DNA of 18,068 nucleotides from an uncultured Bacilli bacterium (GTDB lineage: Bacteria; Bacillota_I; Bacilli_A; RF39; UBA660), in the NCBI GenBank assembly GCA_934096535.1, contig CAKOMC010000028.1, forward strand, positions 1-18,068. Direction: 5' to 3'. Positions 1 to 15,336 of this stretch are shown here, piece after piece. The number at the start of each line of letters is the position of its first letter. The first letter of the stretch is position 1. Position numbers and translations under genes: made by a program. Under the pieces are notes generated by a model, which was given only the letters and a program-made list of their open reading frames with translations, did no database searches and had not been told where the DNA came from.

Positions 1-195
1 GATGTTATCGCTGTTAAAGAACAATCTTTAGACCATCCTGCTATTAAAGCTGCTGTTGAAGCTACTTTAAATAGACCAGCTTATGTTGAATTTGATGCTA
101 ATAAGTTAACTGGAAAATATCTTCGTTTCCCTGATAGAAGTGAATTAAATCCTGATATTAATGAAGCATTAATCGTTGAATACTACAACAGATAA
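1..195 (+). CDS. rpsD: 30S ribosomal protein S4, C-terminal part (5' end outside window)
   Basis: Frame 1 translates to [64 protein letters not shown]. This matches the conserved S4 C-terminus (..KLTG.....P.RSEL...INEALIVE[FY]Y.R). TAA stop at 193..195. Confidence 0.8.
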
Positions 196-197
196 TA

Positions 198-226
198 AAA
201 AGTCTCCAAAGTGAGGCTTTTTATTT
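198..226 (+). terminator. Rho-independent terminator after rpsD
   Basis: Stem AAAGTCTC (198..206) / GAGGCTTT (213..221) with one G-U pair, running into a T-rich tract. It lies 3 nt after the rpsD stop. Confidence 0.45.
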
Positions 227-455
227 AACTTTTAAAAATCTGAAAAGATCACTTTCGGATTTTTAAGCAATATAGTTTATAATCATTAAAACTAGTCTAA
301 TGATATCTATATTATATATTTAGGTAAATTGCCAAGGACTAACCTTGTTTCCAATCTATAATAGATTATTTTCTTAAAAGAAAATTACTTCTTATATTAA
401 TAGTCGTAACCATTAATCACTAGTGGCATAAATCTAAATCTATCTTAGTAGGAAT

Positions 456-568
456 CTGGGCGGGCACCAAAAGTGTTATCCACATTGTTCCAAGGGTTCA
501 GATAACCAGCGCTATTCTGATTCCACTCACGAGCATTGCCGTTCGTCGCATCAAAGTTAGAAGGGGAC
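456..568 (-). repeat. DGR template repeat TR1 (113 nt)
   Basis: The - strand reads SPSNFDATNGNAREWNQNSAGYLNPWNNVDNTFGARP in the VR frame. It starts GTCCCCTTCTAAC and ends GGTGCCCGCCCAG like the VR, then continues into the TR-type flank ATTCCTACTAAG. Unit signals: TATAAT (- strand) at 632..637; hairpin 239..259 followed by a T-run. Confidence 0.75.
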
Positions 569-881
569 CAAGAGCAAGGCAAGTAAATAGCAACATAAAA
601 AGGTTAATCCTAGAGCCTATGCTCCATCCTCATTATAAGCTATTTTTTTATAATTTAAAATACTTCCCTATCACTAATTTTGATAAGGAAGTAAATAATA
701 CAGTATCTAACTATTAAATCTCGTCTAACAGTATCTATATTTTATCTTCTGACATAGTCATGGTAATATCTTGTTTCCAATCTATAATAGATTATTTTCC
801 TAAAAGAAAATTACTTCTTATATTAATAGCCGTAGCCATTAATCATTAGTGGCATAAATCTAAATCTATCTTAGTAGGAAT

Positions 882-994
882 CTGGGCGGGCACCAAGACC
901 GTTAGCCACATTCCAGTTGTTAGTCAGATAGCCAGCGCTATTCTGATTCCACTCACGAGCATCGCCCCATGTCGCATCAAAGTTAGAAGGGGGG
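882..994 (-). repeat. DGR template repeat TR2 (113 nt)
   Basis: The - strand reads PPSNFDATWGDAREWNQNSAGYLTNNWNVANGLGARP. The 5' end carries a C7 run (G7 on +, 989..995) instead of GTCCCC. It has the same GGTGCCCGCCCAG end and TR-type flank. Unit signals: TGGTAATAT (- strand) at 1023..1031, the least certain promoter of the seven; hairpin 662..692 (12 bp, one G-U on the - strand). Confidence 0.7.
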
Positions 995-1384
995 GAGAAA
1001 AATCTTGGACATGAATGTAAGGATATTACCAAGAATCTTAAAATATTTTACTCACAAATGCAAATTAACTATATTTTTTAGGCTGTATAACGATAATTTT
1101 TTACTACCACAATAAATATTTTAATATTCCAATAACATTATAATATATTTTTTAAAATAAAACACTCCCCTATTAATATTTTTAATAGAAAAGTGCAACA
1201 ATATAGTTTATAATCGCTAAATCATGTTCAGTGATATCTATACTTTATCTTTAGGATACCCTAGGATAAGCCTTGTTTCCAATCTATAAATAGATTATTT
1301 TCTTTAAAGAAAATTACTTCTTATATTAATAGCCGTAACCATTAATCATTAGTGTCATAAATCTAAATCTATCTTAGTAGGAAG

Positions 1385-1494
1385 CTGGGCGGGCACCAAG
1401 AGTGTTGTTAACACCCCAATTGCTCAAGTAGCCAGCGCTATTCTGCATCCACTCATTAGCATTGCCGTTCGTCGCATTAAAGTTAGAAGGGGAC
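1385..1494 (-). repeat. DGR template repeat TR3 (110 nt, one codon shorter)
   Basis: The - strand reads SPSNFNATNGNANEWMQNSAGYLSNWGVNNTLGARP. There are 9 rather than 10 codons between GYL and GARP. The flank after CCCAG is CTTCC rather than ATTCC. Unit signals: extended -10 TGATATAAT (- strand) at 1571..1579; hairpin 1163..1195 (14 bp with three G-U pairs, pairing only on the - strand) plus a T-run. Confidence 0.75.
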
Positions 1495-1809
1495 AAACGG
1501 TAAAACCAGTAAGGCCAATCAATCATTAATAGACTTACCCCGAGATTACAAACTTTTGTAACTCTTCTTGATTATATCATAACTTGTAAAAAAAATAAAA
1601 GAACCACCTAGTAGGTGGCAGCAGCATAGTATCTAACTATTAAATCTCGTCTAACAGTATCTATACCATATATTTAGGTTAATACCTAGGCTACACCTTG
1701 TTTCCAATCTATAAATAGATTATTTCCTTTAAAGAAAATTACTTCTTATATTAATAGCCGTAACCATTAATCACTAGTGTCATAAATCTAAATCTATCTT
1801 AGTAGGAAT

Positions 1810-1922
1810 CTGGGCGGGCACCAATACTGTTGTTAACACCCCACCAGTTGTTGAGATAACCAGCGCTATTCTGATTCCACTCATTAGCAGCGCCGTTCGT
1901 CGCATTAAAGTTAGAAGGGGAC
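1810..1922 (-). repeat. DGR template repeat TR4 (113 nt), cognate template of the current VR
   Basis: The - strand reads SPSNFNATNGAANEWNQNSAGYLNNWWGVNNSIGARP (10 AAY codons). It aligns without gaps to VR 5043..5155 with 11 mismatches, all at adenines of the TR. Unit signals: TATAAT (- strand) at 1994..1999; hairpin CCACCT-AGT-AGGTGG at 1604..1618 followed on the - strand by TTCTTTTATTTTTTTT. Confidence 0.9.
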
Positions 1923-2249
1923 AAAGTAGTACGCTGAAAAAACAATAAGGATTTAGATGTAGCCTAAAGGCTTTATGCCTTCTTCTAAATTATATTATAA
2001 CTTCACGGTTTTTAAAACAAATATTTTCTAATAATCAAAAAGCTCTCCGAAGAGAGCAACCAACATAGTATCTAATTATTAAATCATGTCTAATAATATC
2101 TATGCTATTTATTTAGGAATAAATTCCAAGAAAAAACCTTGTTTCCAATCTATAATAGACCATTTTCTTAAAAGAAAATTACTTCTTATATTAATAGCCG
2201 TAGCCATTAATCACTAGTGTCATAAATCTAAATCTATCTTAGTAGGAAT

Positions 2250-2362
2250 CTGGGCGGGCACCATACCAGTCAGTAACCCAAGTCCATTGATTAAGATAAC
2301 CAGCGCTATTCTGTATCCACTCATTAGCAGCGCCGTTCGTCGCATCAAAGTTAGAAGGGGAC
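2250..2362 (-). repeat. DGR template repeat TR5 (113 nt)
   Basis: The - strand reads SPSNFDATNGAANEWIQNSAGYLNQWTWVTDWYGARP. An in-frame TAG lies immediately upstream. Unit signals: TATAAT (- strand) at 2416..2421; hairpin GCTCTC-CGAA-GAGAGC at 2042..2057 followed on the - strand by TTTTT. Confidence 0.75.
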
Positions 2363-2655
2363 TAATAATCCCGTAGTTCTGTAGGCTTTCTCTAGAGCAC
2401 TTTTGCTCTACTTCTATTATAGTACATTTTTGATTATTTAAAACCACCTTAATCGGTGGTTAAAATTTAGTATAGTTAATAATTATTAAATCATGTCTAA
2501 TAATATCTATACTATTTATTTAGGAATATTTCCAAGAAAAAGCCTTGTTTCCAATCTATAATAGATTATTTTCTTAAAAGAAAATTACTTCTTATATTAA
2601 TAGTCGTAGCCATTAATCATTAGTGTCATAAATCTAAATCTATCGTAGTAGGAAT

Positions 2656-2768
2656 CTGGGCGGGCACCAAAAGTATCATGTATCCAAGCCCAAGGATTGA
2701 GATTGCCAGCGCTATTCTGATTCCACTCATTAGCAACGCCGTTTGTCGCATCAAAGTTAGAAGGGGAC
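2656..2768 (-). repeat. DGR template repeat TR6 (113 nt)
   Basis: The - strand reads SPSNFDATNGVANEWNQNSAGNLNPWAWIHDTFGARP. Unit signals: TATAAT (- strand) at 2822..2827; hairpin AACCACC / GGTGGTT at 2442..2461. Confidence 0.75.
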
Positions 2769-3073
2769 CAAAAGTAGCTCCTTGGTTTTGTAGACTTTCT
2801 CTAGAGCTCTGCTCCACTTCTATTATAATACAGTTTTATAATTTATATTATTTAAATTTTAAAAGACTCTCCGTAGAAAGTCTTAGCAACATAGTTTCCA
2901 ACTAATAAATCATGTCTAATAGTATCTATGCTATATCTTTAGGCAAATTGCCATGGTTAAACCTTGTTTCCAATCTATAATAGATTATTTTCTTAAAGAA
3001 AATTACTTCTTATATTAATAGTCGTAGCCATTAATCATTAGTGTCATAAATCTAAATCTATCTTAGTAGGAAT

Positions 3074-3186
3074 CTGGGCGGGCACCAAGACTGTTAGTAA
3101 CGTCCCACCAAGTATTGAGGTTGCCAGCGCTATTCTGATTCCACTCATTAGCATTGCCCCATGTCGCATCAAAGTTAGAAGGGGAC
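3074..3186 (-). repeat. DGR template repeat TR7 (113 nt)
   Basis: The - strand reads SPSNFDATWGNANEWNQNSAGNLNTWWDVTNSLGARP. Unit signals: TATAAT (- strand) at 3257..3262; hairpin 2864..2883 (8 bp, one G-U on the - strand) followed by a T-rich tract. Confidence 0.75.
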
Positions 3187-3323
3187 TGGATAAGGCGCTG
3201 TAACAGACAATGAAGGTTTTAGGTAAAACCAGAAGACCAAATAGCCTTCGTTTAAAATTATAATATAAATAATTGAAGCTTAAAATACCTCACCTACTCT
3301 TGCTAATTATTTAGTCTAAATAG

Positions 3324-3427
3324 TGTCAAAAAAATGTCAAATTTAGAAAAAGTTTGGCATTTTTTAAATTTTTGAAGGAAATTAGACTTCACTTACCAAT
3401 ATATATAATTAGGAGAGTAAATAATAA
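3324..3427. repeat. Left arm of inverted repeat: conserved 5' region of the Rpn-like genes
   Basis: TGTCAAAAAAATGTCAAATTTAGAAAAAGTTTGGCATTTTTTA..AATTTTTGAAGGAAATTAGACTTCACTTACCAATATATATAATTAGGAGAGTAAATAATAA matches the reverse complement of 10501..10617 almost base for base, apart from a ~9-nt indel. It contains a TGTCAAA direct repeat and TATAAT-like boxes. Confidence 0.85.
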
Positions 3428-3499
3428 CTCTCTTAAGAAACGGAGGTGAATCTATGAGAAATTTTGCCAAAAGCAATATGGAAAAGGAAGTGATGATTA

Positions 3500-4435
3500 A
3501 TGAAAAGCAAGAAAGAAATCCAAAGAACATTAAAAGAAAATAAAGGTGCCGATTTTGTTCTACCGATGACTTGGGATGTAATGTTCGAGCAAATGTTTAT
3601 TTCTGAGGAAGCCATGCCCTTACTTGAGTGTATTATTTCAATATTCGGTAATGTCGATATAAAAGATGTTAAAGGTAAAGTTAGATTATTACCAAACGAA
3701 TTAAAACAAACATCGGCAAAAGATACGAGGAGTAAAAGCGATATAATTGCTGATTATTTTAAAGACGAAAAAAATATTGATAAGTATATTGTGGAAATGA
3801 ATTCATCAAGGAAGATGCCTTGGCATAATGTTTTCTATGCTTATAAAGTAGCTGGTGGCGGTATTTCTATTAATGATGATAAATATGTTAAGGCTTACGA
3901 CACTATCTTAATTGATTTTAACACATTTGCGGATAGCGAAAATGACTTGGTAGAAATGATCACTATGCGTTACAAAACTTGTAAAATCTTTGATGATAGT
4001 ACTAAAATATTCGAAGTAAATATGGCAAAAGCAAAAGATATGAGTTATAATTATGTCGATAAACAAGAAGAACAAGTAGCCATAATTAGTAGAATGTTTA
4101 TGACTACAAGTTCACTTGAGTTGGATAAGGAGTCAGATAAGCTTATGAGTAAAAAAGATACAGAAAAATTAGTTAGTCGTGCCAAAGAATTATCGAGTGA
4201 TGATGGTTATATTAGACTTTTTGATGAAGAAGAAAACTATAAGGAGCTAATTCGTAATACCGAGTTAGCAGAAGCTCATGAAAAAGGTAAATTAGAAGGC
4301 AAGTTAGAAGGCTCTGAAGAAAGAGCATTAGAAATTGCTAAAAAGTGTTTAGAAAAAAACATGAATATTGATACAATTGCAGAACTTACTAGCTTATCAG
4401 TTAAGGAAATTGAAGCTTTAAAGAAAGAAGCTTAA
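3500..4435 (+). CDS. PD-(D/E)XK nuclease-family putative transposase (Rpn / PDDEXK_2-like), left copy
   Basis: 311-aa ORF. Its N-terminal WDVMFEQMF...SKSDIIADY...KYIVEMNSS pattern fits the D...(D/E)xK-type core of this family. The C-terminal EKGKLEGKLEG..ALEIAKKCLEKNMNIDTIAELTSLSVKEIEAL tail is typical of Rpn/YhgA-like proteins. It is a paralogue of 9466..10440. The assignment comes from remembered family patterns and has not been checked by a search. Confidence 0.6.
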   Translation: MKSKKEIQRTLKENKGADFVLPMTWDVMFEQMFISEEAMPLLECIISIFGNVDIKDVKGKVRLLPNELKQTSAKDTRSKSDIIADYFKDEKNIDKYIVEMNSSRKMPWHNVFYAYKVAGGGISINDDKYVKAYDTILIDFNTFADSENDLVEMITMRYKTCKIFDDSTKIFEVNMAKAKDMSYNYVDKQEEQVAIISRMFMTTSSLELDKESDKLMSKKDTEKLVSRAKELSSDDGYIRLFDEEENYKELIRNTELAEAHEKGKLEGKLEGSEERALEIAKKCLEKNMNIDTIAELTSLSVKEIEALKKEA

Positions 4436-4478
4436 TAAATAGTTATTTTACAACTTATACCATGCACACCATACCATG

Positions 4479-4789
4479 ACAAAGGGGCTGAGTGGAAATG
4501 AATAATTTCTACTTGGCTTCTTTTTTTAAACTTTAAAATCCGAAAAAGCCCCAGAAAACAACTTCTGGAACCATATATGATACAATCTAATTAACAAAAT
4601 AAGATATATTTCACAAATAAATTTAAGATAAAAACAACCATTTTAATATTATCCTCACATAAAAGAAGTGAGGAAGTAGTCCAAAATTTGAATTTTAATG
4701 AAAGTGTTTTAAATTAACTACTTCAGTTATGCTAAATAAAATAATTAAGTCAATAAAATCGATTTTTTATTTCCACTCAGCCCCTTTGT
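4479..4789. repeat. Perfect 21-bp inverted repeats flanking a 269-bp AT-rich segment
   Basis: ACAAAGGGGCTGAGTGGAAAT (4479..4499) is the exact reverse complement of ATTTCCACTCAGCCCCTTTGT (4769..4789). The enclosed segment has an extended -10 TGATACAAT on + (4578..4586) and small hairpins, and no ORF. Confidence 0.8.
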
Positions 4790-4901
4790 TTTAAAAGGCT
4801 CTGCCGTTTTGCTTTTTGTAGAAGCAAAACGGCAGTCCATCTCCATCAAGTACCTGCCAAGCATATTGTTTTATTTGTACTTCTCTACCCTGTTTGTTCT
4901 T

Positions 4902-4940
4902 AAAAAAAAGGCGTCCCCAAATGATGAGTCATTTGGGGAC
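4902..4940 (-). terminator. Rho-independent terminator of the DGR target gene
   Basis: 12-bp stem GTCCCCAAATGA (4913..4924) / TCATTTGGGGAC (4929..4940) with a 4-nt loop, followed on the - strand by GCCTTTTTTTT. It lies 28 nt after the stop of 4968..6995. Confidence 0.85.
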
Positions 4941-4967
4941 TAATTTGGTTTACTTCTCATTACTTTT

Positions 4968-6995
4968 TTACTGAACAACATATGGATCAGAACTTGTTCC
5001 AATACCGGAAGTTATCAGAGTATCAGATTTCAGATTGATAACTGGGCGGGCACCAAGACTGCCGTTAACACCCCACCAGTTGCTGAGATAACCAGCGCTA
5101 CTCTGACGCCACTCAAAAGCAGCGCCGTACGTCGCATCAAAGTTAGAAGGGGACATGGTCCAATAGTGTTGAGTTGAATAAACCCATGCCAATTTATTTA
5201 CATGATCATAATCCATACCAGCAAATACTAATTCGTCATATGTAACTAAACCAACTGGATATGTTAAAGCTTTATTACCTATACTTGAATCGGTTGTTGT
5301 GTATAAATCTCTCTCTTTGTTTGGACATGTAAATTGAGGACTTTTAGTTTGATATCTTTTAAAAGGTCCAAAATAACTATACACATTAGTGCTTATACCA
5401 TCTCCACCTGTCAAAGTTCTGTCGCCACAGAAACCAACGGCATTTGATACATAGTTACTATATCCTTTATCAACGATATTAGTTTTGTACCAATTATCTA
5501 CAGTTGTTTTAATTGTTGACGATGTTGTGTTTGTATGGACTTCATCAAATGTTGTACCATCCGGATTTCCATACATATATCCGACATAAGCAGGATCATT
5601 ATAATTACTATTAAATTGGTAAGTTCTATTATTAATTGATTGTTTTGTACTAGTTGCATTTTTTTCTGTACCATTATACATCAATCTTATTGAACCATCA
5701 CCATTAATACGAACTATTTGCCAATAGAAACCAGCAAAATATACATTATTATTTTTTATATTGCCACGATAATAATAAGTTGTACCATAATCATCTGTTC
5801 CTTGATACAAGCCCCTATCAGATTTATCGGTTTCCAACTCAGTTTCTGTTAAAGTAATAGCATTTAATTTATAAGTTACACTATCATATGAAACATTATT
5901 CCATGTTGTTTTGCCTGTTGTCTTTGTAGCACCAGTAACCTGATATACAGTTAGACTACCACCACTAGATGAAGTATATAATTTTTGATTTACTTTGTTA
6001 TATTGAATACTTTCAGCTTGAAAATAATATTTTATATCACCGCTATAATCAAGAGTTGTTGGATCAACATATACTGGATTTGACAATGTATATGTAGCAG
6101 TTGCACTATTAAATGACTTCGTTTTAAATAAACGTAACTTTGTATCATTCAATGCCAAGTTGCTAGCCTGCGTTGCTTTATCAACTGTACCAGTATCTTT
6201 ATTATAAGAATTTATAACACTTTCTGCTGGCTTTGTAGATGATACTGTTGTTGTACCACCCGTTTTTTCTACCCATTTTATTACTGGAGCTGTATTAGTT
6301 ACATCAACAGTTTGTTTAGCAGCAATCTTAGTTTTAGCTATAGCAGGTGTTGTTTGATATTCATTAGCTAAAATTGCTTCTCCTAGCTTATTATAACCAG
6401 CAGATACAGGACTGTAATTACCTGGTTCTGATACAATAACTACTTTTGATTTAAAAATTTTATTCATTACATCATCATTAATCGTCGCATCTTCATCCAT
6501 CCAGAAGGATACAGTATAATCAACTGTATCATCAGCGCCCAAATAACCTTCGGCAATTGTCCTTGCCTCAGTTGATCCCGTCATTGTTGTTGTCGCTGTT
6601 TTATATTTATCTAATGTAGTAATTGCATCACTGTTAATCTTAGTAGCAACCCATTTACTATTTAAAGTTGTACCCTCTAACATTTCTAAATTAACATAAT
6701 AATGAGCAAAAATCGAACAACTATTCCTTAAAGTAAAACTAAATGGTTTTAATTTTAACCCTTCAGCATCAGTTATTGGATAAGCATTAGTTAAGTTAAT
6801 TTCATCTTTTTGATCAGTAAGTTCAATATTAAAACATCCCGATGTTGCCGTATTTGCTTTATCAGCAATATAAGTAAAACGCCAATAAGCATAAGAAACC
6901 CCCACAGTTGCAAGCCCAATAATACAGCATGTTAAAACCAACATTAAAACATGATATTTATTAGGTGTATTTTTTTTAATTCTCTTATCATTCAT
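4968..6995 (-). CDS. DGR target (variable) protein: N-terminal membrane anchor/signal, Thr/Ser-rich extracellular region, C-terminal lectin-like variable domain
   Basis: 675-aa ORF. The N-terminus is KYHVLMLVLTCCIIGLATVGVSYAYW, a hydrophobic anchor followed by an AYW motif reminiscent of TasA/camelysin-type signals. The C-terminus is ...HYWTMSPSNFDATYGAAFEWRQSSAGYLSNWWGVNGSLGARPVINLK and contains the VR. The W..S....A...G...ARPV layout resembles the CLec/DUF1566-type DGR variable domains. Confidence 0.85.
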   Translation of the reverse strand: MNDKRIKKNTPNKYHVLMLVLTCCIIGLATVGVSYAYWRFTYIADKANTATSGCFNIELTDQKDEINLTNAYPITDAEGLKLKPFSFTLRNSCSIFAHYYVNLEMLEGTTLNSKWVATKINSDAITTLDKYKTATTTMTGSTEARTIAEGYLGADDTVDYTVSFWMDEDATINDDVMNKIFKSKVVIVSEPGNYSPVSAGYNKLGEAILANEYQTTPAIAKTKIAAKQTVDVTNTAPVIKWVEKTGGTTTVSSTKPAESVINSYNKDTGTVDKATQASNLALNDTKLRLFKTKSFNSATATYTLSNPVYVDPTTLDYSGDIKYYFQAESIQYNKVNQKLYTSSSGGSLTVYQVTGATKTTGKTTWNNVSYDSVTYKLNAITLTETELETDKSDRGLYQGTDDYGTTYYYRGNIKNNNVYFAGFYWQIVRINGDGSIRLMYNGTEKNATSTKQSINNRTYQFNSNYNDPAYVGYMYGNPDGTTFDEVHTNTTSSTIKTTVDNWYKTNIVDKGYSNYVSNAVGFCGDRTLTGGDGISTNVYSYFGPFKRYQTKSPQFTCPNKERDLYTTTDSSIGNKALTYPVGLVTYDELVFAGMDYDHVNKLAWVYSTQHYWTMSPSNFDATYGAAFEWRQSSAGYLSNWWGVNGSLGARPVINLKSDTLITSGIGTSSDPYVVQ
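5043..5155 (-). repeat. DGR variable repeat (VR) with 3' GC-rich IMH-like element
   Basis: 113 nt, collinear with TR4 1810..1922. The - strand reads SPSNFDATYGAAFEWRQSSAGYLSNWWGVNGSLGARP. It ends in GGTGCCCGCCCAG (5043..5055 on +), then diverges from all TRs (TTATCAATCTG versus ATTCCTACTAAG). Confidence 0.9.
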
Positions 6996-7093: not shown

Positions 7094-7471
7094 TTATCTT
7101 AAGATATCTAAAATATTTTCTAATTGTTTATTAACTTCTTCTAAACTTAATCTATTTAATTTATATTTTATTAAATCAACTTTTTTATCTATTTCTACTT
7201 GTAATAAACCTTCATTTAAATATTTTTGATAAGTATTATTTTCTTGAAAATCTTTAGATATTTCTAATTCTTTTTTATAATATATTTGATAATTAATCGA
7301 TAATTCTTCTAATTTTTCTATTATTTTATCTATTATAGTACTAGGAAATCCTAATTTATCATTTTTACCCTCTCCTACTAGTTTATAATTAAAAATACTA
7401 TGTAAAATATAAGCATCTTCATTATAACAAGTTATAAATTTTCCATCATTTTTATATAATTTTATAAACAT
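7094..7471 (-). CDS. Small DGR-associated protein resembling MutS mismatch-binding domain I (MSL-type accessory candidate)
   Basis: 125-aa ORF between the RT and the target gene. GKFITCYNEDAYILHSIFNYKL..GKNDKLGFPSTIIDKIIEKLEELSINYQI parallels the MutS N-terminal pattern GDFYELFxxDAxxxSxxLxIxLT....xMxGxPxxxxxxYxxKLxxxGxxVxI. The similarity was judged by eye only. Confidence 0.45.
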   Translation of the reverse strand: MFIKLYKNDGKFITCYNEDAYILHSIFNYKLVGEGKNDKLGFPSTIIDKIIEKLEELSINYQIYYKKELEISKDFQENNTYQKYLNEGLLQVEIDKKVDLIKYKLNRLSLEEVNKQLENILDILR

Positions 7472-7481
7472 ACTCTACTCC

Positions 7482-8681
7482 TTAATCGTAAATAACTATT
7501 ACTTCATCTTTTTTCTTTTTAACTTTCATATCCATTCCTTTAAACCAAGGGTGTTTTCTAATAAATGAACCGCTGCAACAATTACTTAGATAGCCTTTAT
7601 AACTAGCTAAGACACTTGTATAGTTTTCTGGGGGATTCTTTTCTAATTTATTTAGTTTATGGGTTATTCTTCTTTTCGTTTGACTATTAATAAGTACTAA
7701 TAGTTTTTTATTTTTTAAAACAAAACGATATCCTAAGAAATTAAGACCATCTTTCATCGATATTATTTTTGTTTTTTGATTCAATTTTAATTCTTCAGCA
7801 GCTACTTTTTTTCTGATTTCTTCTAAACAATATTTTAGATATTCTCTATCAGGATGCATTAGAATAAAATCATCCATATAACGAATATAGTATTTAATAT
7901 GTAGTTGTTCTTTAATAAAATGGTCTAAGTCATTTAAGTAATAAATAGCAAATAGTTGACTAGTCATATTCCCTATTGGTAAACCTCTTCCTTCTTGATA
8001 ATAAGGAATAGTACTTAGTTCTTCAAACCTTTTTTTCATATAAGGATTATTAGCTTTTCTTAAGATTTCTTTTTCACAATCAACTAATCTTTTTATTTGA
8101 CTATTAGTATTATTTTGATAAGTTGAAGTTAAAATACTCTTAATTGCCTCTATTACTTCTTCATCAGGTAAAATATTACGCAGTTTTTCAATTAATTTTT
8201 CATGACTAATACTATAAAAGTATTTATGAATATCACATTTTAATATATAGAAATTATCATATTTTCTTTTTAAATGATTAATATAGTCTTTGGTGTAAGA
8301 CAGTCCTAATTTAAGACCTTTATCTCTTCTTGTTGCCACATTCATAGGAATAAGTCGTGGTTCAATTAAGGGTAATAAGATATATTCGCTTATTAAATGG
8401 TTAACAACTTTATCAAAGATATTTTCGCTCATTATAATACGATATTTCGGCTCTTTTACTAAGAAAACATTGTAGTTACTATGATGATAAGATTTAGTTT
8501 TTAAGGTTTCATAAATATTTATGATATTACTCATATAATAGGTTTCAAAGTTAACAATTTTACTACGATGTTTGGTTTTTAATCTAACTTCATAATACAT
8601 ATTTTCAATATATGGAATATTTACAATTGAATCATAAAGATTAGTTTTGTTCTTTAGATTCAGAACTTCTGATGATGCCAT
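7482..8681 (-). CDS. DGR-type reverse transcriptase
   Basis: 399-aa ORF. Motif 4, LPIGNMTSQLFA (IGNMTSQ encoded at 7956..7976), carries the [ILV]GxxxSQ signature of DGR RTs. The catalytic YMDD is encoded at 7869..7880, followed by LNFLGYRF. The gene sits directly downstream of avd, overlaps it by 41 nt, and lies upstream of a VR-bearing gene. Confidence 0.92.
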   Translation of the reverse strand: MASSEVLNLKNKTNLYDSIVNIPYIENMYYEVRLKTKHRSKIVNFETYYMSNIINIYETLKTKSYHHSNYNVFLVKEPKYRIIMSENIFDKVVNHLISEYILLPLIEPRLIPMNVATRRDKGLKLGLSYTKDYINHLKRKYDNFYILKCDIHKYFYSISHEKLIEKLRNILPDEEVIEAIKSILTSTYQNNTNSQIKRLVDCEKEILRKANNPYMKKRFEELSTIPYYQEGRGLPIGNMTSQLFAIYYLNDLDHFIKEQLHIKYYIRYMDDFILMHPDREYLKYCLEEIRKKVAAEELKLNQKTKIISMKDGLNFLGYRFVLKNKKLLVLINSQTKRRITHKLNKLEKNPPENYTSVLASYKGYLSNCCSGSFIRKHPWFKGMDMKVKKKKDEVIVIYD

Positions 8682-9012
8682 AGGCTATCTTTCTCGCTTC
8701 TATTATTATATTTGATAAACATTCTAACTGATGGGAACTTATATATTTTTTATGATACAATTCTCTTGCATAATAATCATACATGGATAATTTTACTATG
8801 TAATCATAGAGATGTTTTTCTTTAACACGATTCGTCCTTTGCAAATTGTAAGCAAAGATATTTTCCATCATATCATATTGACATTCTTCAATATGTCTTT
8901 TGAGATTGGAAGCTTTCTTAGGAACATTTGGTAAAAGTCGATTTAGATAAGCTAAAGCCCTCTCCGTTTGGGATAATAATCTAAATTTATTTTCCATTAT
9001 TTGGGTTGTCAA
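8641..9012 (-). CDS. avd: Accessory variability determinant (Avd-like, helical bundle)
   Basis: ~120-aa basic, helix-rich ORF immediately 5' of the RT and overlapping it, which is the canonical Avd position and size. The start is uncertain. The ORF-track start at 9012 is TTG and overlaps a TATAAT box; ATG at 8997 (MENKFRLL..) is the more likely start. Confidence 0.7.
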   Translation of the reverse strand: MTTQIMENKFRLLSQTERALAYLNRLLPNVPKKASNLKRHIEECQYDMMENIFAYNLQRTNRVKEKHLYDYIVKLSMYDYYARELYHKKYISSHQLECLSNIIIEARKIAYGIIRSSESKEQN

Positions 9013-9465: not shown

Positions 9466-10440
9466 TTAGCATAAATCATTTATTTCTTTAATGGATAAAC
9501 CTGATGACTCAGAAATAATGTCTATGCTAATGCCCGCTTTTTTTAAATTTTTAGCTATATCTATTGCTTTTATTTTAGAACCCTGAATTATTCCTTTTTC
9601 TATTCCTTTTTTAATTCCTTTTTCAAGACCGCGCTCCTCGGCTTCTTCCCTGGCTTCTGCAAGTTCCGTATTACGAATTAACTCTTTATAGTTATCTTCT
9701 TCACCATTTTCAAACAGTCTAATGTATTCATCATCACTTGATAATTCTTTGGCTCTTGCTACAATTTTTTTAGTTTCTTCTTTACTCATAATTTCATTTA
9801 ACTCTCTTTCTAATACTTTAATATCGCATGTAGTTAAAATCCTACATATTCTTGCCATTTTCTCTTCCTGTTCATTAAAATAAGTATACCGCTTATTTAA
9901 AGCTTTATCTATATTAACATTAATAATTTTAATGCTATCTTCAATAATTTTACCAAAATCAGTTTGAAATATTCCAATTTCAACTAATCGTTCAGATTTA
10001 TGATGATAGGAATTAAAATTTACTACGATAGTGTCGAATATTTTTCTATATGCTCCATTTTTTATTTTCAAATCGCTACTTGCAATTTTATAAGCATAAA
10101 AGGCATTTCTCATTACCATAATATGTGATGAATTCATTTCTAAAATACATTTAGTTTCTTTTTTTCCATTAGGATAAGAAAGTAATAAATCACTTTTACT
10201 ATTGGTATCAATTATTGAATGCTGTGGTAAGTCTTTAGGCAGTAATTTAACTTTGCCTTTAAAATTTTGCTTAGTTGTATCTTCTATGGTGGAAACTATA
10301 TACTCTATTAAAGGCATAGTATCACTGGAAATGAACATCTGGTTAAACATAACATCCCAAGCAAGTGGAAAACTAAAGCCGGTAATGTTATGTTCCTTAT
10401 TGTAATGCCACATCTTTATGATTTTCTGTTTTTCTAGCAT
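9466..10440 (-). CDS. PD-(D/E)XK nuclease-family putative transposase (Rpn / PDDEXK_2-like), right copy
   Basis: 324-aa ORF, homologous along its whole length to 3500..4435. Compare WDVMFNQMFIS / WDVMFEQMFIS, SKSDLLLSY / SKSDIIADY, ILEMNSS / IVEMNSS, and the AKELSSDDEYIRLF..NYKELIRNTELAEA block. AGGAGGGAG lies 7 nt upstream of the ATG. Confidence 0.6.
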   Translation of the reverse strand: MLEKQKIIKMWHYNKEHNITGFSFPLAWDVMFNQMFISSDTMPLIEYIVSTIEDTTKQNFKGKVKLLPKDLPQHSIIDTNSKSDLLLSYPNGKKETKCILEMNSSHIMVMRNAFYAYKIASSDLKIKNGAYRKIFDTIVVNFNSYHHKSERLVEIGIFQTDFGKIIEDSIKIINVNIDKALNKRYTYFNEQEEKMARICRILTTCDIKVLERELNEIMSKEETKKIVARAKELSSDDEYIRLFENGEEDNYKELIRNTELAEAREEAEERGLEKGIKKGIEKGIIQGSKIKAIDIAKNLKKAGISIDIISESSGLSIKEINDLC

Positions 10441-14827: not shown

Positions 14828-15296
14828 TTACCGGATTGTTATTGTTCCAGATTAAGTTTGTACCATTAACATTTTTAGAACCCATGATAGTAAAGCCATC
14901 ACTGGATTCATCCTTAGCACTTACTAAGGTAAAATGAATGTCATAAAAGCCTTTTTCCTCATTACTAAATTGCTCTAAAGTTTTAGCCGCTACCGCCTTT
15001 GATGTAGTAAGATCAGCCCCAGCTTTAAAAACAATACGAATATAAATGATTTTACCACTTACTTCAACTTTAGCATCATCGACATTTTTACCTTCTTTAA
15101 TGCTATTTACAAGACTTTCTTTTTTAGTATCATTAATCTCTACGGCCTCAATACCATCTAAACGATCACCATATTTAGACCCTCCATTGCCAAAGTAAAA
15201 GTACTTAAGTAATAAGGCAACGCTAATACCAATACAAGCGATAATTATTAAAACCATGAAACAAATTGCTTTATTATTACGAATAAATTTTTTCAA
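14811..15296 (-). CDS. Small membrane-anchored hypothetical protein
   Basis: 161-aa ORF with a TTG start at 15296 preceded by AAGAGGTG. It has an N-terminal TM (AICFMVLIIIACIGISVALLL) and no recognisable motif. Confidence 0.55.
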   Translation of the reverse strand: MKKFIRNNKAICFMVLIIIACIGISVALLLKYFYFGNGGSKYGDRLDGIEAVEINDTKKESLVNSIKEGKNVDDAKVEVSGKIIYIRIVFKAGADLTTSKAVAAKTLEQFSNEEKGFYDIHFTLVSAKDESSDGFTIMGSKNVNGTNLIWNNNNPVSDDGE

Positions 15297-15336
15297 AATT
15301 ACACCTCTTTCTGTAAATTGATTATACTATATATTT

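Follow-up and report, generated by a model that had tools for sequence, protein, structure and literature searches.

A Diversity-Generating Retroelement with One Variable Region and a Remote Array of Seven Template Repeats

Introduction

How does a diversity-generating retroelement (DGR) with a single variable region (VR) make use of seven template repeats (TRs), none of which lies near its reverse transcriptase (RT)? In the usual DGR, one template bounds the search: the positions that it encodes with adenine vary, and the scaffold stays fixed. The locus described here lies on contig CAKOMC010000028.1 of an uncultured Bacilli bacterium. It was analyzed as a window of 18,068 nt, the whole stretch of DNA considered, and all coordinates refer to that window. 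A first-pass annotation had singled out one repeat, TR4, as the distant template of the VR and had set the other six aside. That exclusion is right for this VR. It misses that the other TRs are alternatives that serve sister strains, so the finding is a template array and not one distant TR.

A Complete DGR

The locus is a complete DGR, with an intact RT, an avd gene, a MutS-like (MSL) accessory gene, and a target gene that contains the VR (Table 1). The RT has a YMDD box (residue 268) and IGNMTSQ (residues 235–241), and the motif [ILV]GxxxSQ is specific to DGR RTs. Matches of the RT to the group II intron RT, Drt3a, and retron RT models of NCBIfam were all under the cut-off. The RT is intact in every relative compared. 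Avd is full-length and in the canonical position, and it is intact at 77–100% identity across 15 related loci; its profile matches are under the curated cut-offs (PF22296 bAvd, E = 1.6e-8, 35.5 bits against a cut-off of 40; NF033474 DivGenRetAVD, E = 2e-8, 34.4 bits against 80). The MSL gene keeps its position straight after the RT in relatives. With avd, the RT, and a small MutS-like accessory protein (recognized at the Pfam threshold only: MutS_I, E = 5e-4, 20.7 bits, cut-off 20.6), the window resembles the MSL-containing DGRs known as 'Architecture D', which include the Legionella DGR (Wu et al. 2018, PMC5758913).

TR4 as the Donor of the VR

The gap-free alignment of VR 5043..5155 to TR4 on the minus strand, described in the first-pass annotation, was reproduced with TR4 at 1811..1923. 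The interval given there, 1810..1922, is one base off, and its literal use results in a frame-shifted comparison. The full repeat is 114 nt long in both copies (Table 1). In the correct register, all 11 mismatches fall on an A of TR4 (six A>G, three A>T, and two A>C), as had been claimed. Given 28 A in the 114 nt of TR4, the hypergeometric probability of this outcome is 3.3e-8. The same eight codon changes were also recovered: AAT>GAT (N>D), AAC>TAC (N>Y), AAT>TTT (N>F), AAT>CGT (N>R), AAT>AGT (N>S), AAC>AGC (N>S), AAC>GGC (N>G), and ATT>CTT (I>L). Since CTT is already present at that site in the TR4 orthologues of the near-identical strains L054 and L055, the last change is possibly a TR polymorphism and not a mutagenesis event; discounting it leaves 10 of 10 mismatches at A.

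None of the remaining six TRs could give the VR by A-only changes, again in agreement with the earlier claim. In gapped alignments they differ from the VR at 18–29 positions, of which 8–17 are non-A, and TR3 requires a 3-nt gap besides substitutions. The whole VR of this strain is derived from TR4, the sole template that accounts for all of it. TR4 was therefore correctly named as the last donor, and its distance of 3.1 kb from the VR was reproduced.

Seven Stand-Alone Template Units

Only eight copies of the repeat occur in the window, and seven of them form TR units downstream of the target, 1.8–4.7 kb beyond the VR. Within 4 kb of the RT, we found no TR and no copy of the domain that follows each TR on its 3' side (the 3' domain). 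A canonical cassette has one TR beside the RT and co-transcribed with it. Here no TR lies by the RT and seven units lie past the target, so the locus departs from canonical DGR architecture.

In layout, each unit resembles a gene for a small RNA, about 380 nt long, with a -10 box, then a short leader, a TR of 111–114 nt, a 3' domain, and a terminator. TATAAT (TATAGT in the TR2 unit) stands 52–75 nt upstream of the TR in every unit, and a hairpin with a T run follows every 3' domain; a scan picked out 10 terminator-like sites, where 2.6 would be expected. The other units are 73–83% identical to TR4. At 111 nt, TR3 is shorter by one codon. The TRs of the window have 23–27 A and 5–10 AAY codons per 93-nt core, against three AAY codons in the VR, and open reading frames in the TR frame reach just 41–53 aa, as befits the non-coding, AAY-rich template of a DGR. 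The ends common to all TRs and the VR are intact (5' GTCCCCTTCTAACTTT and 3' GGTGCCCGCCCAG). The latter is GC-rich, and divergence begins right after it. Internal blocks are also common to all TRs.

Table 1. Positions of the DGR genes, repeats, and template units in the window.
Feature	Position	Strand	Details
TR1 unit	194..637	-	-10 box 637..632; TR1 569..456; 3' domain 455..259
TR1 terminator hairpins	~266..232 and 225..194	-	
TR2 unit	661..1073	-	-10-like TATAGT 1073..1068; TR2 995..882; 3' domain 881..687; terminator 693..661
TR3 unit	1162..1576	-	-10 box 1576..1571; TR3 1495..1385; 3' domain 1384..1190; terminator 1196..1162
TR4 unit (VR donor)	1603..1994	-	-10 box 1994..1989; TR4 1923..1810; 3' domain 1809..1613; terminator 1619..1603
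TR5 unit	2042..2421	-	-10 box 2421..2416; TR5 2363..2250; 3' domain 2249..2052; terminator 2057..2042
TR6 unit	2440..2827	-	-10 box 2827..2822; TR6 2769..2656; 3' domain 2655..2459; terminator ~2461..2440
TR7 unit	2860..3262	-	-10 box 3262..3257; TR7 3187..3074; 3' domain 3073..2878; terminator ~2883..2860
Rpn-family recombination-promoting nuclease / putative transposase	3500..4435	+	between target and array; association uncertain
Hairpin	4913..4940	-	12-bp stem, 4-nt loop, then T run; just past target stop codon
Target gene	4968..6995	-	675 aa; N-terminal hydrophobic helix; VR close to C-terminus
VR	5042..5155	-	114 nt; GGTGCCCGCCCAG at end
MutS-like (MSL) accessory gene	7094..7471	-	125 aa; weak MutS_I match
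DGR reverse transcriptase	7482..8681	-	399 aa; RVT_1, E = 1.3e-18
avd (DGR accessory variability determinant)	8641..9012	-	123 aa; overlaps RT start
Second Rpn-family gene	9466..10440	-	upstream of avd; association uncertain

A Structured RNA Domain Shared with Canonical Relatives

The 3' domain is about 200 nt long and has 47 base pairs, of which 22 show compensatory changes among 40 units from 5 loci. Paired cells amount to 97.6%, compared with 88.6% after shuffling and 34–47% in slid controls. The 3' domains of all seven units in the window are full-length and score 197–205 bits. An Rfam 15 scan of the whole window, with E up to 1, returned nothing relevant, the TR 3' domains included.

With the covariance model, we found the domain once, directly after the single TR, in L013, L018, and L020. 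A single copy lies upstream of the RT in L010, L011, and L012, and L009 has two tandem units of TR plus domain upstream of avd-RT. More distant relatives have the same RNA element as the array, behind their single TR and upstream of avd-RT, and in canonical relatives it occupies the position of the BPP-1 spacer. Within the same RT clade, the canonical DGRs with a single TR (L013, L018, L014, L017, and L020) and the two-unit L009 have RTs that are 41–59% identical to that of the window, and L013, L018, L020, and L009 share with it the domain after the TR. Their one TR (two in L009) lies between the target and avd-RT, whereas the array of the window lies elsewhere. The array clade, with RTs at least 77% identical, has relocated and multiplied the module of TR plus domain.

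Arrays of 6–12 units are present at L002, L003, L006, and L007, which are loci of GTDB species representatives; the L002 array has 11 units. Metagenome assemblies are the source of all the arrays, and in several cases the contig breaks at the array. The contigs of L001, L048–L050, and L053 end at the array or within the VR, as they might if the array or the VR assignments were artefacts of collapsed or chimeric repeats. We find this explanation barely credible. The window, L051, L054, and L055 are four independent assemblies that agree on all seven units and their order, between the same unique flanks (an Rpn-like gene on one side and rpsD on the other). At 73–83% identity to TR4, the units are also distinct enough to assemble, and arrays recur at the four further related loci named above.

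Different Templates in Sister Strains

Orthologous arrays of near-identical strains show 0–4 differences per TR, and the VRs of these strains lead back to different units. The VRs of L051 and L052 match their own TR7 (14–15 A changes), that of L054 matches TR2 (12 A changes), and that of L055 matches TR4 (10 A changes, with substitutions unlike those of the window), each with no non-A change. At the further array loci, the VR of L002 comes from its TR#2 (13 A, 0 non-A) and that of L007 from its TR#5 (13 A, at most one non-A). At the protein level, the 90% cluster of the target (21 members) includes VR scaffolds of the TR1, TR2, TR4, TR5, TR6, and TR7 types, and TR3-type VRs occur in L001 and P0090. 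Between them, closely related strains have drawn on all seven templates. Outside the VR, the P0133 and P0123 targets have no differences from that of the window; within it, P0133 differs in one A-templated codon, and P0123 has a VR of the TR1 type.

These data lead us to reject TR4 as the only functional unit. The broader explanation, in which only one template works per genome (here TR4), the others are decaying duplicates, and scaffolds spread by recombination between strains, seems very improbable to us. It would fit a VR for which TR4 alone suffices, a target protein that is identical on several contigs, and the degenerate units of some arrays, such as the truncated L002 #8 and L007 #7. 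However, all seven TRs of the window keep their A content, AAY codons, ends, 3' domains, -10 boxes, and terminators, and the four independent assemblies keep all seven units within the 0–4 differences per TR given above. Strains that have the same array match their own TR7, TR2, or TR4 without non-A changes, and targets that are identical outside the VR bear different scaffolds.

Some VRs are mosaics. That of L003 combines its own TR#6 (5' 44 nt) with TR#4 (3' 61 nt) and leaves no residual non-A mismatch. In L048–L050, a TR7-like 5' part is joined to a TR1 3' part, and the target outside the VR is identical to that of the window. Strictly 3'-anchored partial conversion was considered as the cause of mosaics and was not adopted, since P0129 and P0132 have identical 3' parts and different 5' parts, a pattern that purely 3'-anchored replacement does not predict. 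Against the TRs of the window, the VRs of some close strains need one or two non-A changes: L047 (TR5), L048 (TR1), and P0125 (TR6). In these three the strain's own array lies outside the contig, which leaves mosaics indistinguishable from local TR variants. For the VR of L006, none of the six TRs captured at that locus is a donor (11 residual non-A mismatches).

The exact target protein of the window is present on 5 contigs, so a VR is able to stay stable. The first-pass annotation had also proposed that the element is active or was recently so. Recent activity is supported by VR variation among independent assemblies, as distinct from reads, and the RT is intact; we infer that the element is currently active.

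A Model of Template Choice

Our reading, to which we give a probability of roughly 80%, is that one protein machine (Avd, RT, and the MutS-like protein) serves one VR from seven alternative templates. Each unit would be separately transcribed, and its 3' domain would recruit RT-Avd and prime cDNA synthesis, in the manner of the Bordetella spacer (Sp). The RT could then copy any of the seven unit RNAs in trans into adenine-mutagenized cDNA. This cDNA would replace the VR by way of the GTCCCCTTCTAACTTT and GGTGCCCGCCCAG ends that TRs and VR have in common, and the shared internal blocks would permit partial replacement and hence mosaic VRs. Each TR sets its own non-A scaffold and its own randomizable codons, and TR3 its own loop length. 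Since there are seven templates, each with its own scaffold, the array multiplies the sequence space that can be reached.

Silent-cassette systems (Neisseria pilE/pilS, Borrelia vlsE/vls, and chicken Ig pseudo-V genes) also have one expressed site, an array of unexpressed variant cassettes, and mosaics, and in birds hypermutation forms an additional layer. By analogy, homologous recombination or gene conversion by RecA or by the neighbouring Rpn nucleases could copy a TR cassette into the VR at the DNA level, and the DGR would only add A mutations from the TR that then matches. Mosaic VRs, the P0129/P0132 pair (alike in the 3' part and unlike in the 5' part), and the Rpn-family genes that flank the DGR and occur inside arrays of relatives would all suit such a route, but we think it improbable. 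No VR was found to be a TR copied without change. All switched VRs have 10–15 A-site changes over their full length and no non-A change, so that donor and recipient are not faithful copies of each other, unlike those of pilE/pilS. The cassettes of the silent systems are promoterless DNA, whereas those of the window look like RNA genes, and a donor that acts only as DNA needs neither a promoter nor a structured RNA domain and terminator in each cassette.

The Rpn-family genes themselves match TIGR01784 under its cut-off (E = 3.4e-11 for the gene next to the array and 4.6e-9 for the one upstream of avd). Homologous genes occur next to or within the arrays of L003, L004, L006, L051, L054, and L055. 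The interval between VR and array in L002 has no Rpn-like ORF, and just a partial match lies upstream of the RT there; 11 units and a clean donor are nevertheless present at this locus. Because of L002, and because positions elsewhere vary, we dropped the Rpn-family genes as core parts, and the one at 3500..4435 probably lies outside the core of the element.

A further and more tentative idea, which on balance we doubt, is that the array is writable too: mutagenized cDNA, or a selected VR allele, might be written back into a TR unit. Consistent with this, the TRs of units #4 and #11 in L002 differ at 15 positions, all at A of #11 (P = 5.7e-11). The 3' domain of #4 belongs to the lineage of its neighbours (94–96% identical to those of #3, #5, and #6, and 80% to that of #11). 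L002 units #4, #5, and #8 are A-depleted and VR-like, and TR polymorphisms between strains are located at A sites. If write-back does occur, the array would accumulate, duplicate, and store explored binding-site scaffolds as a heritable memory, and the expressed VR could be re-programmed by a cassette switch and then renewed by hypermutation.

Comparison with Known Systems

The DGR of Bordetella phage BPP-1 (mtd VR, avd, TR, Sp, brt) resembles the window in its RT and Avd, its A-specific TR-to-VR substitution, a VR that lies late in the target ORF and ends in GC-rich sequence, and a structured RNA on the 3' side of the TR. It differs in having a single TR that adjoins the RT and is transcribed with avd and brt, where the window has seven remote, stand-alone units. 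Both homology ends of the single VR recur in all of these units. The window also has the additional MutS-like gene, and some 100 nt separate its target hairpin, whose loop is not GRNA, from the VR.

Published multi-TR DGRs, like the window, have more than one TR per RT. In those reports, every TR was paired with one or more separate VRs, or such loci were tallied or set aside unanalyzed; in the window, seven TRs (6–12 in relatives) share one VR and are used alternately between strains. Template arrays are not described in the survey of Wu et al. 2018 (PMC5758913), and our literature search, which reached little of the subscription literature, turned up no earlier account of a single VR supplied by many templates.

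The array lifts the limit that a single template sets. It adds further scaffolds and further sets of variable codons, another loop length, and the mosaics that templates can form with one another, and it would have the RT of a DGR served in trans by several competing RNAs from kilobases away. Cassette switching and hypermutation together are otherwise known from the diversification of bird antibodies. The TR and its covariation-supported domain of about 200 nt form a portable template module, which would be useful for engineered multi-template DGR mutagenesis. DGR-finding pipelines that expect one TR per VR, or that discard multi-TR loci, will misread such elements.

The Target Protein and Its Hairpin

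The target is a surface protein, and the element rewrites its tip, where the VR encodes residues 614–651 of 675. It has more than 3000 homologues, in which variation is concentrated in the VR. Searches of Pfam and NCBIfam placed it in no family, even with E allowed up to 5, and sequence searches of the PDB with two profiles gave chance matches only. A model of the full-length protein built from 30 close homologues was unusable (pLDDT 45). In its place, we modeled the C-terminal domain of 281 aa from diverse representatives (pLDDT 96). VRs of DGRs are displayed on a ligand-binding fold of the C-type-lectin-like or Ig-like kind. Foldseek matched this model to DUF6273 phage proteins with a probability of 1.0 and a TM of just 0.40–0.43, and to DUF1566/Lcl and CD23 lectin domains at E of about 1–2 only.

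The hairpin just past the target stop codon looks like the terminator of the target gene. At known DGR target sites, the VR has at its 3' end a GC-rich IMH that differs from the TR, and the hairpins have a GC stem of 7–10 bp and a 4-nt GRNA loop and lie 4–34 bp from the VR (Guo 2011, PMC3240598). The hairpins considered here, about 100 nt from the VR, have stems of 12–14 bp and the loops CTCA, ATCA, TCTT, and CTCC. The hairpin is kept in L002, L003, L004, L006, and L007, with compensatory changes in its stem, and it is possibly a DGR target-site hairpin as well.

Locus Organization

On the defining features tested, the element is a diversity-generating retroelement (DGR), with the exception of single-TR architecture, which it lacks, and of the target hairpin and the fold, which are ambiguous. 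A repeat of ~114 nt is present in eight copies on the - strand of the window, seven within 456..3187 and one at 5042..5155. The latter, the variable repeat (VR), sits toward the end of a 675-aa ORF whose coding sequence continues after it, while the seven template repeats (TR1 to TR7) run into a common non-coding sequence, ATTCCTACTAAGATAG... The canonical arrangement with one TR is absent from the window. No TR there adjoins the reverse transcriptase (RT), the nearest being TR7, 4.3 kb off. The 125-aa ORF fits the "MSL" (MutS-like) class of accessory proteins (Wu et al. 2018). The locus comes from an uncultured gut Bacilli bacterium related to "Mycoplasma sp. CAG:956", and Hadza gut MAGs are the closest genome matches.

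Features of the DGR locus, listed in - strand order
Feature	Position	Strand	Remarks
Rpn-family gene	9466..10440	-	TIGR01784, below cut-off
avd	8641..9012	-	
RT	7482..8681	-	RVT_1, YMDD, IGNMTSQ
MSL, 125-aa ORF	7094..7471	-	MutS_I match at threshold level
Target gene with VR	4968..6995	-	675-aa ORF
Strong hairpin-terminator	4940..4913	-	
Second Rpn-family gene	3500..4435	+	opposite strand; TIGR01784, below cut-off
Seven TR units, TR7 to TR1			last in order

Comparison of the VR with TR4

The first-pass annotation derived the VR from TR4 by changes at template adenines only, and our alignment bears this out. Without gaps, TR4 (1811..1923, -) and the VR (5043..5155, -) differ at 11 positions, every one an A of TR4. 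With 28 A in the 114 nt of TR4, the probability of 11/11 is 3.3e-8. The TR4 interval originally given, 1810..1922, is out of register by one base if taken literally; in the correct register, the eight codon changes listed there are reproduced exactly. The other six TRs were rightly said not to be related to the VR by A-only changes, as each would need 8-17 non-A changes. One of the eight codon changes, I>L (ATT>CTT), may reflect polymorphism among TRs and not mutagenesis, because in two sister strains (loci L054 and L055) the orthologous TR4 already has CTT, against ATT in the window. The annotation also called the DGR active, now or until recently, with TR4 as its last donor. The A-only signature stands; current activity in the window strain is inferred, as are transcription, trans action and priming.

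TR Units and Their 3' Domain

Alignment of the seven units gives one order. A TATAAT box and a short leader precede the TR, which is followed by a strongly conserved stretch of ~200 nt and then by a hairpin with a T run. The -10 box (TATAGT for TR2) lies 52-75 nt upstream of the TR in all seven, and the TRs are 114 nt long, except TR3 (111 nt). A scan of 1..5000 found 10 terminator-like sites vs 2.6 expected by chance. These signals suggest that every TR belongs to a stand-alone, transcribed RNA gene of its own. The conserved state of the units, together with the collinear arrays described below, contradicts the view that only one TR is functional.

The conserved segment after each TR, here called the 3' domain, was analyzed in an alignment of forty 3' regions from five loci. 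Its consensus has 47 base pairs, with compensatory changes in 22. Paired cells reached 97.6%, vs 88.6% for column shuffles and 34-47% when partners were displaced by 1-3 columns. Covariation scored 0.337 vs 0.158, and 0/500 shuffles reached the observed score. No Rfam family matched the domain. A covariance model built on it detected the domain seven times in the window and 6-12 times in each of the related loci L002, L003, L006 and L007. Three canonical DGRs, L013, L018 and L020 (RT 42-46% identical), have one copy directly 3' of the single TR. In L010, L011 and L012, a single copy lies upstream of the RT. Because the model finds the domain after the single TR of canonical DGRs, the 3' domain is the counterpart of the TR-to-RT spacer in canonical DGR RNA. 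The array, in turn, is the canonical TR-plus-spacer module after duplication and a move to the far side of the target, downstream of it. By analogy with the Bordetella Sp region, the domain may recruit RT-Avd and prime cDNA synthesis.

Locus L009 (RT 59% identical) looks like an intermediate between the two architectures, with two tandem TR-plus-domain units (L009:258-1312) between target and avd-RT. Unit numbers among the loci run from one to two to 6-12. The 3' domains of the L009 units are identical over 207 nt. Its VR shares 84% identity with the second-unit TR but 61% with the first-unit TR.

Template Use across Strains

The 90%-identity cluster of the window target holds 21 sequences. 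Outside the VR, members differ from the window by 0-14 residues (37 in one member), and their VR peptides represent scaffold types TR1, TR2, TR4, TR5, TR6 and TR7. TR3-type VRs occur in L001 and in protein P0090. An orthologous seven-unit array is present in three other assemblies, with 0-4 differences per TR. It could be argued that the array is an assembly artefact, but this is contradicted by arrays that are collinear in four independent assemblies.

Clean donors could be assigned in several strains. In the three assemblies with the orthologous array, the L051/L052 VR comes from TR7 (14-15 A changes), the L054 VR from TR2 (12) and the L055 VR from TR4 (10, at sites that differ from those of the window), all with 0 non-A changes. 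Among more distant loci, the L002 VR has its own TR#2 as clean single donor (13 A, 0 non-A) and the L007 VR its own TR#5 (13 A, <=1 non-A). All data are metagenome assemblies, and for some donor assignments the array of the window stands in for the strain's own unsequenced array. These comparisons indicate that several templates are used in nature. The L006 VR (L006:13640-13744) has no donor among the six captured TRs (units up to 17384), and 11 residual non-A mismatches to its own TRs persist even when mosaics are allowed. Its donor may lie elsewhere or be lost, or the L006 DGR may be inactive.

Other VRs are mosaics. That of L003 combines its own TR#6 (5' 44 nt) with its own TR#4 (3' 61 nt), leaving 0 non-A mismatches. 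In L048-L050, the target is identical to that of the window outside the VR, and the VR joins a TR7-type 5' part to a TR1-type 3' part. The L001 VR (RT 99% identical) is one codon shorter and matches TR3 except for a motif present in TR2 and TR7. Within the 90% cluster, P0129 and P0132 have an identical VR 3' part, EWHQRSAGCLAHGWSVASGL, and different 5' parts, a pattern not predicted by purely 3'-anchored cDNA replacement. Because of it, internal or 5'-side conversion, or between-strain recombination, must also occur.

The contigs of L048, L049, L050, L053 and L001, from short-read assemblies, end within the VR, shortly before the TR array or inside it. Since several assemblies break there, array loci are likely under-represented or truncated in metagenome-based DGR surveys. 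Multi-TR arrays are not discussed in the large surveys of Wu 2018 and Roux 2021. We found no description of many templates for one VR, between-strain template switching or stand-alone TR RNA genes, in a literature coverage that was incomplete; prior publication is possible.

A Model for Template Choice

The best-supported reading of these sequences is that one RT-Avd(-MSL) machine acts in trans and would copy any of seven competing template RNAs. The A-mutagenized cDNA would then swap into the VR via the ends common to all TRs and the VR, with partial replacements via internal blocks common to TRs (GAGTGG, CAGAATAGCGCTGG). Each TR has 5-10 AAY codons. Because both the non-A scaffold and the set of randomizable codons differ from TR to TR, the array would multiply the reachable sequence space.

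In the main alternative, recombination at the DNA level would switch the scaffolds, perhaps with the aid of the Rpn-family nucleases, and the DGR would mutate the VR afterwards. This is less economical. A VR with an unmutated cassette copy was never seen, RNA-gene features are kept in each cassette, and the 11-unit locus L002 has a clean donor without an Rpn-like ORF between VR and array.

Changes within the Array

The TR of L002 unit #4 (15194-15305) differs from that of unit #11 (17959-18070) at 15 positions, all of them adenines in #11 (P = 5.7e-11). In the 3' domain, unit #4 is 94-96% identical to its neighbors #3, #5 and #6, and only 80% to #11. Because an A-only derivative of #11 sits beside a neighbor-like 3' domain, the #4 TR was overwritten in place by mutagenized sequence whose source was a different unit or a VR descended from it. 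Units #4, #5 and #8 of L002 are depleted in A as VRs are, others are duplicated (#3 = #10, #6 = #7), and TRs that vary between strains do so at A sites. Along with the overwritten #4, these observations hint that the array may be not only read but also written. The codon pair CAGAATAGC is replaced by CAGTTTAGC (AA>TT) in L054 TR6 and L055 TR2 (window 2656..2769 and 882..995).

TR#1 (5710-5823) and TR#2 (6120-6233) of L003 have TGA, in frame, where tryptophan is expected. The target frame would be open only with cDNAs in which that A is mutated, which would make mutagenesis there obligatory.

Target Protein and Accessory Genes

The VR-bearing domain is the C-terminal 281 aa of the target (residues 395-675; window 4971..5813, -). 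Its relatives form 6097 clusters at 50% identity in a representative library, and proteins of 2000-4900 aa often carry it in multiple copies, as many as 11. There is no Pfam model for it and no PDB match by sequence. A structural model based on diverse homologues had a pLDDT of 96. Foldseek matched it to DUF6273 phage proteins (probability 1.0, TM 0.40-0.43); the best solved structure was the Thomasclavelia ramosa IgA peptidase 9qa6 (E 1.8e-5, TM 0.35), and matches to DUF1566/Lcl and CD23 lectin domains were weak. A lectin-like ligand-binding fold is plausible from this model, though not established.

Both avd and RT are intact in 15/15 related loci. MSL is also intact in these loci, with two exceptions: L007 gave no match to MSL, and the L054 MSL (L054:2369-2743) has a premature stop at codon 64. 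The L054 VR is nevertheless derived cleanly from TR2, so MSL may be dispensable, unless its lesion arose only recently.

Genes of the Rpn family (recombination-promoting nuclease/putative transposase) flank the window DGR. In relatives, they occur beside or inside TR arrays (L003:4571-5461, L003:10342-11238, L006:15026-15916 and L004:4825-5757), with more fragments upstream of the RT. Rearrangement of the array could be their role, or they could simply be mobile.
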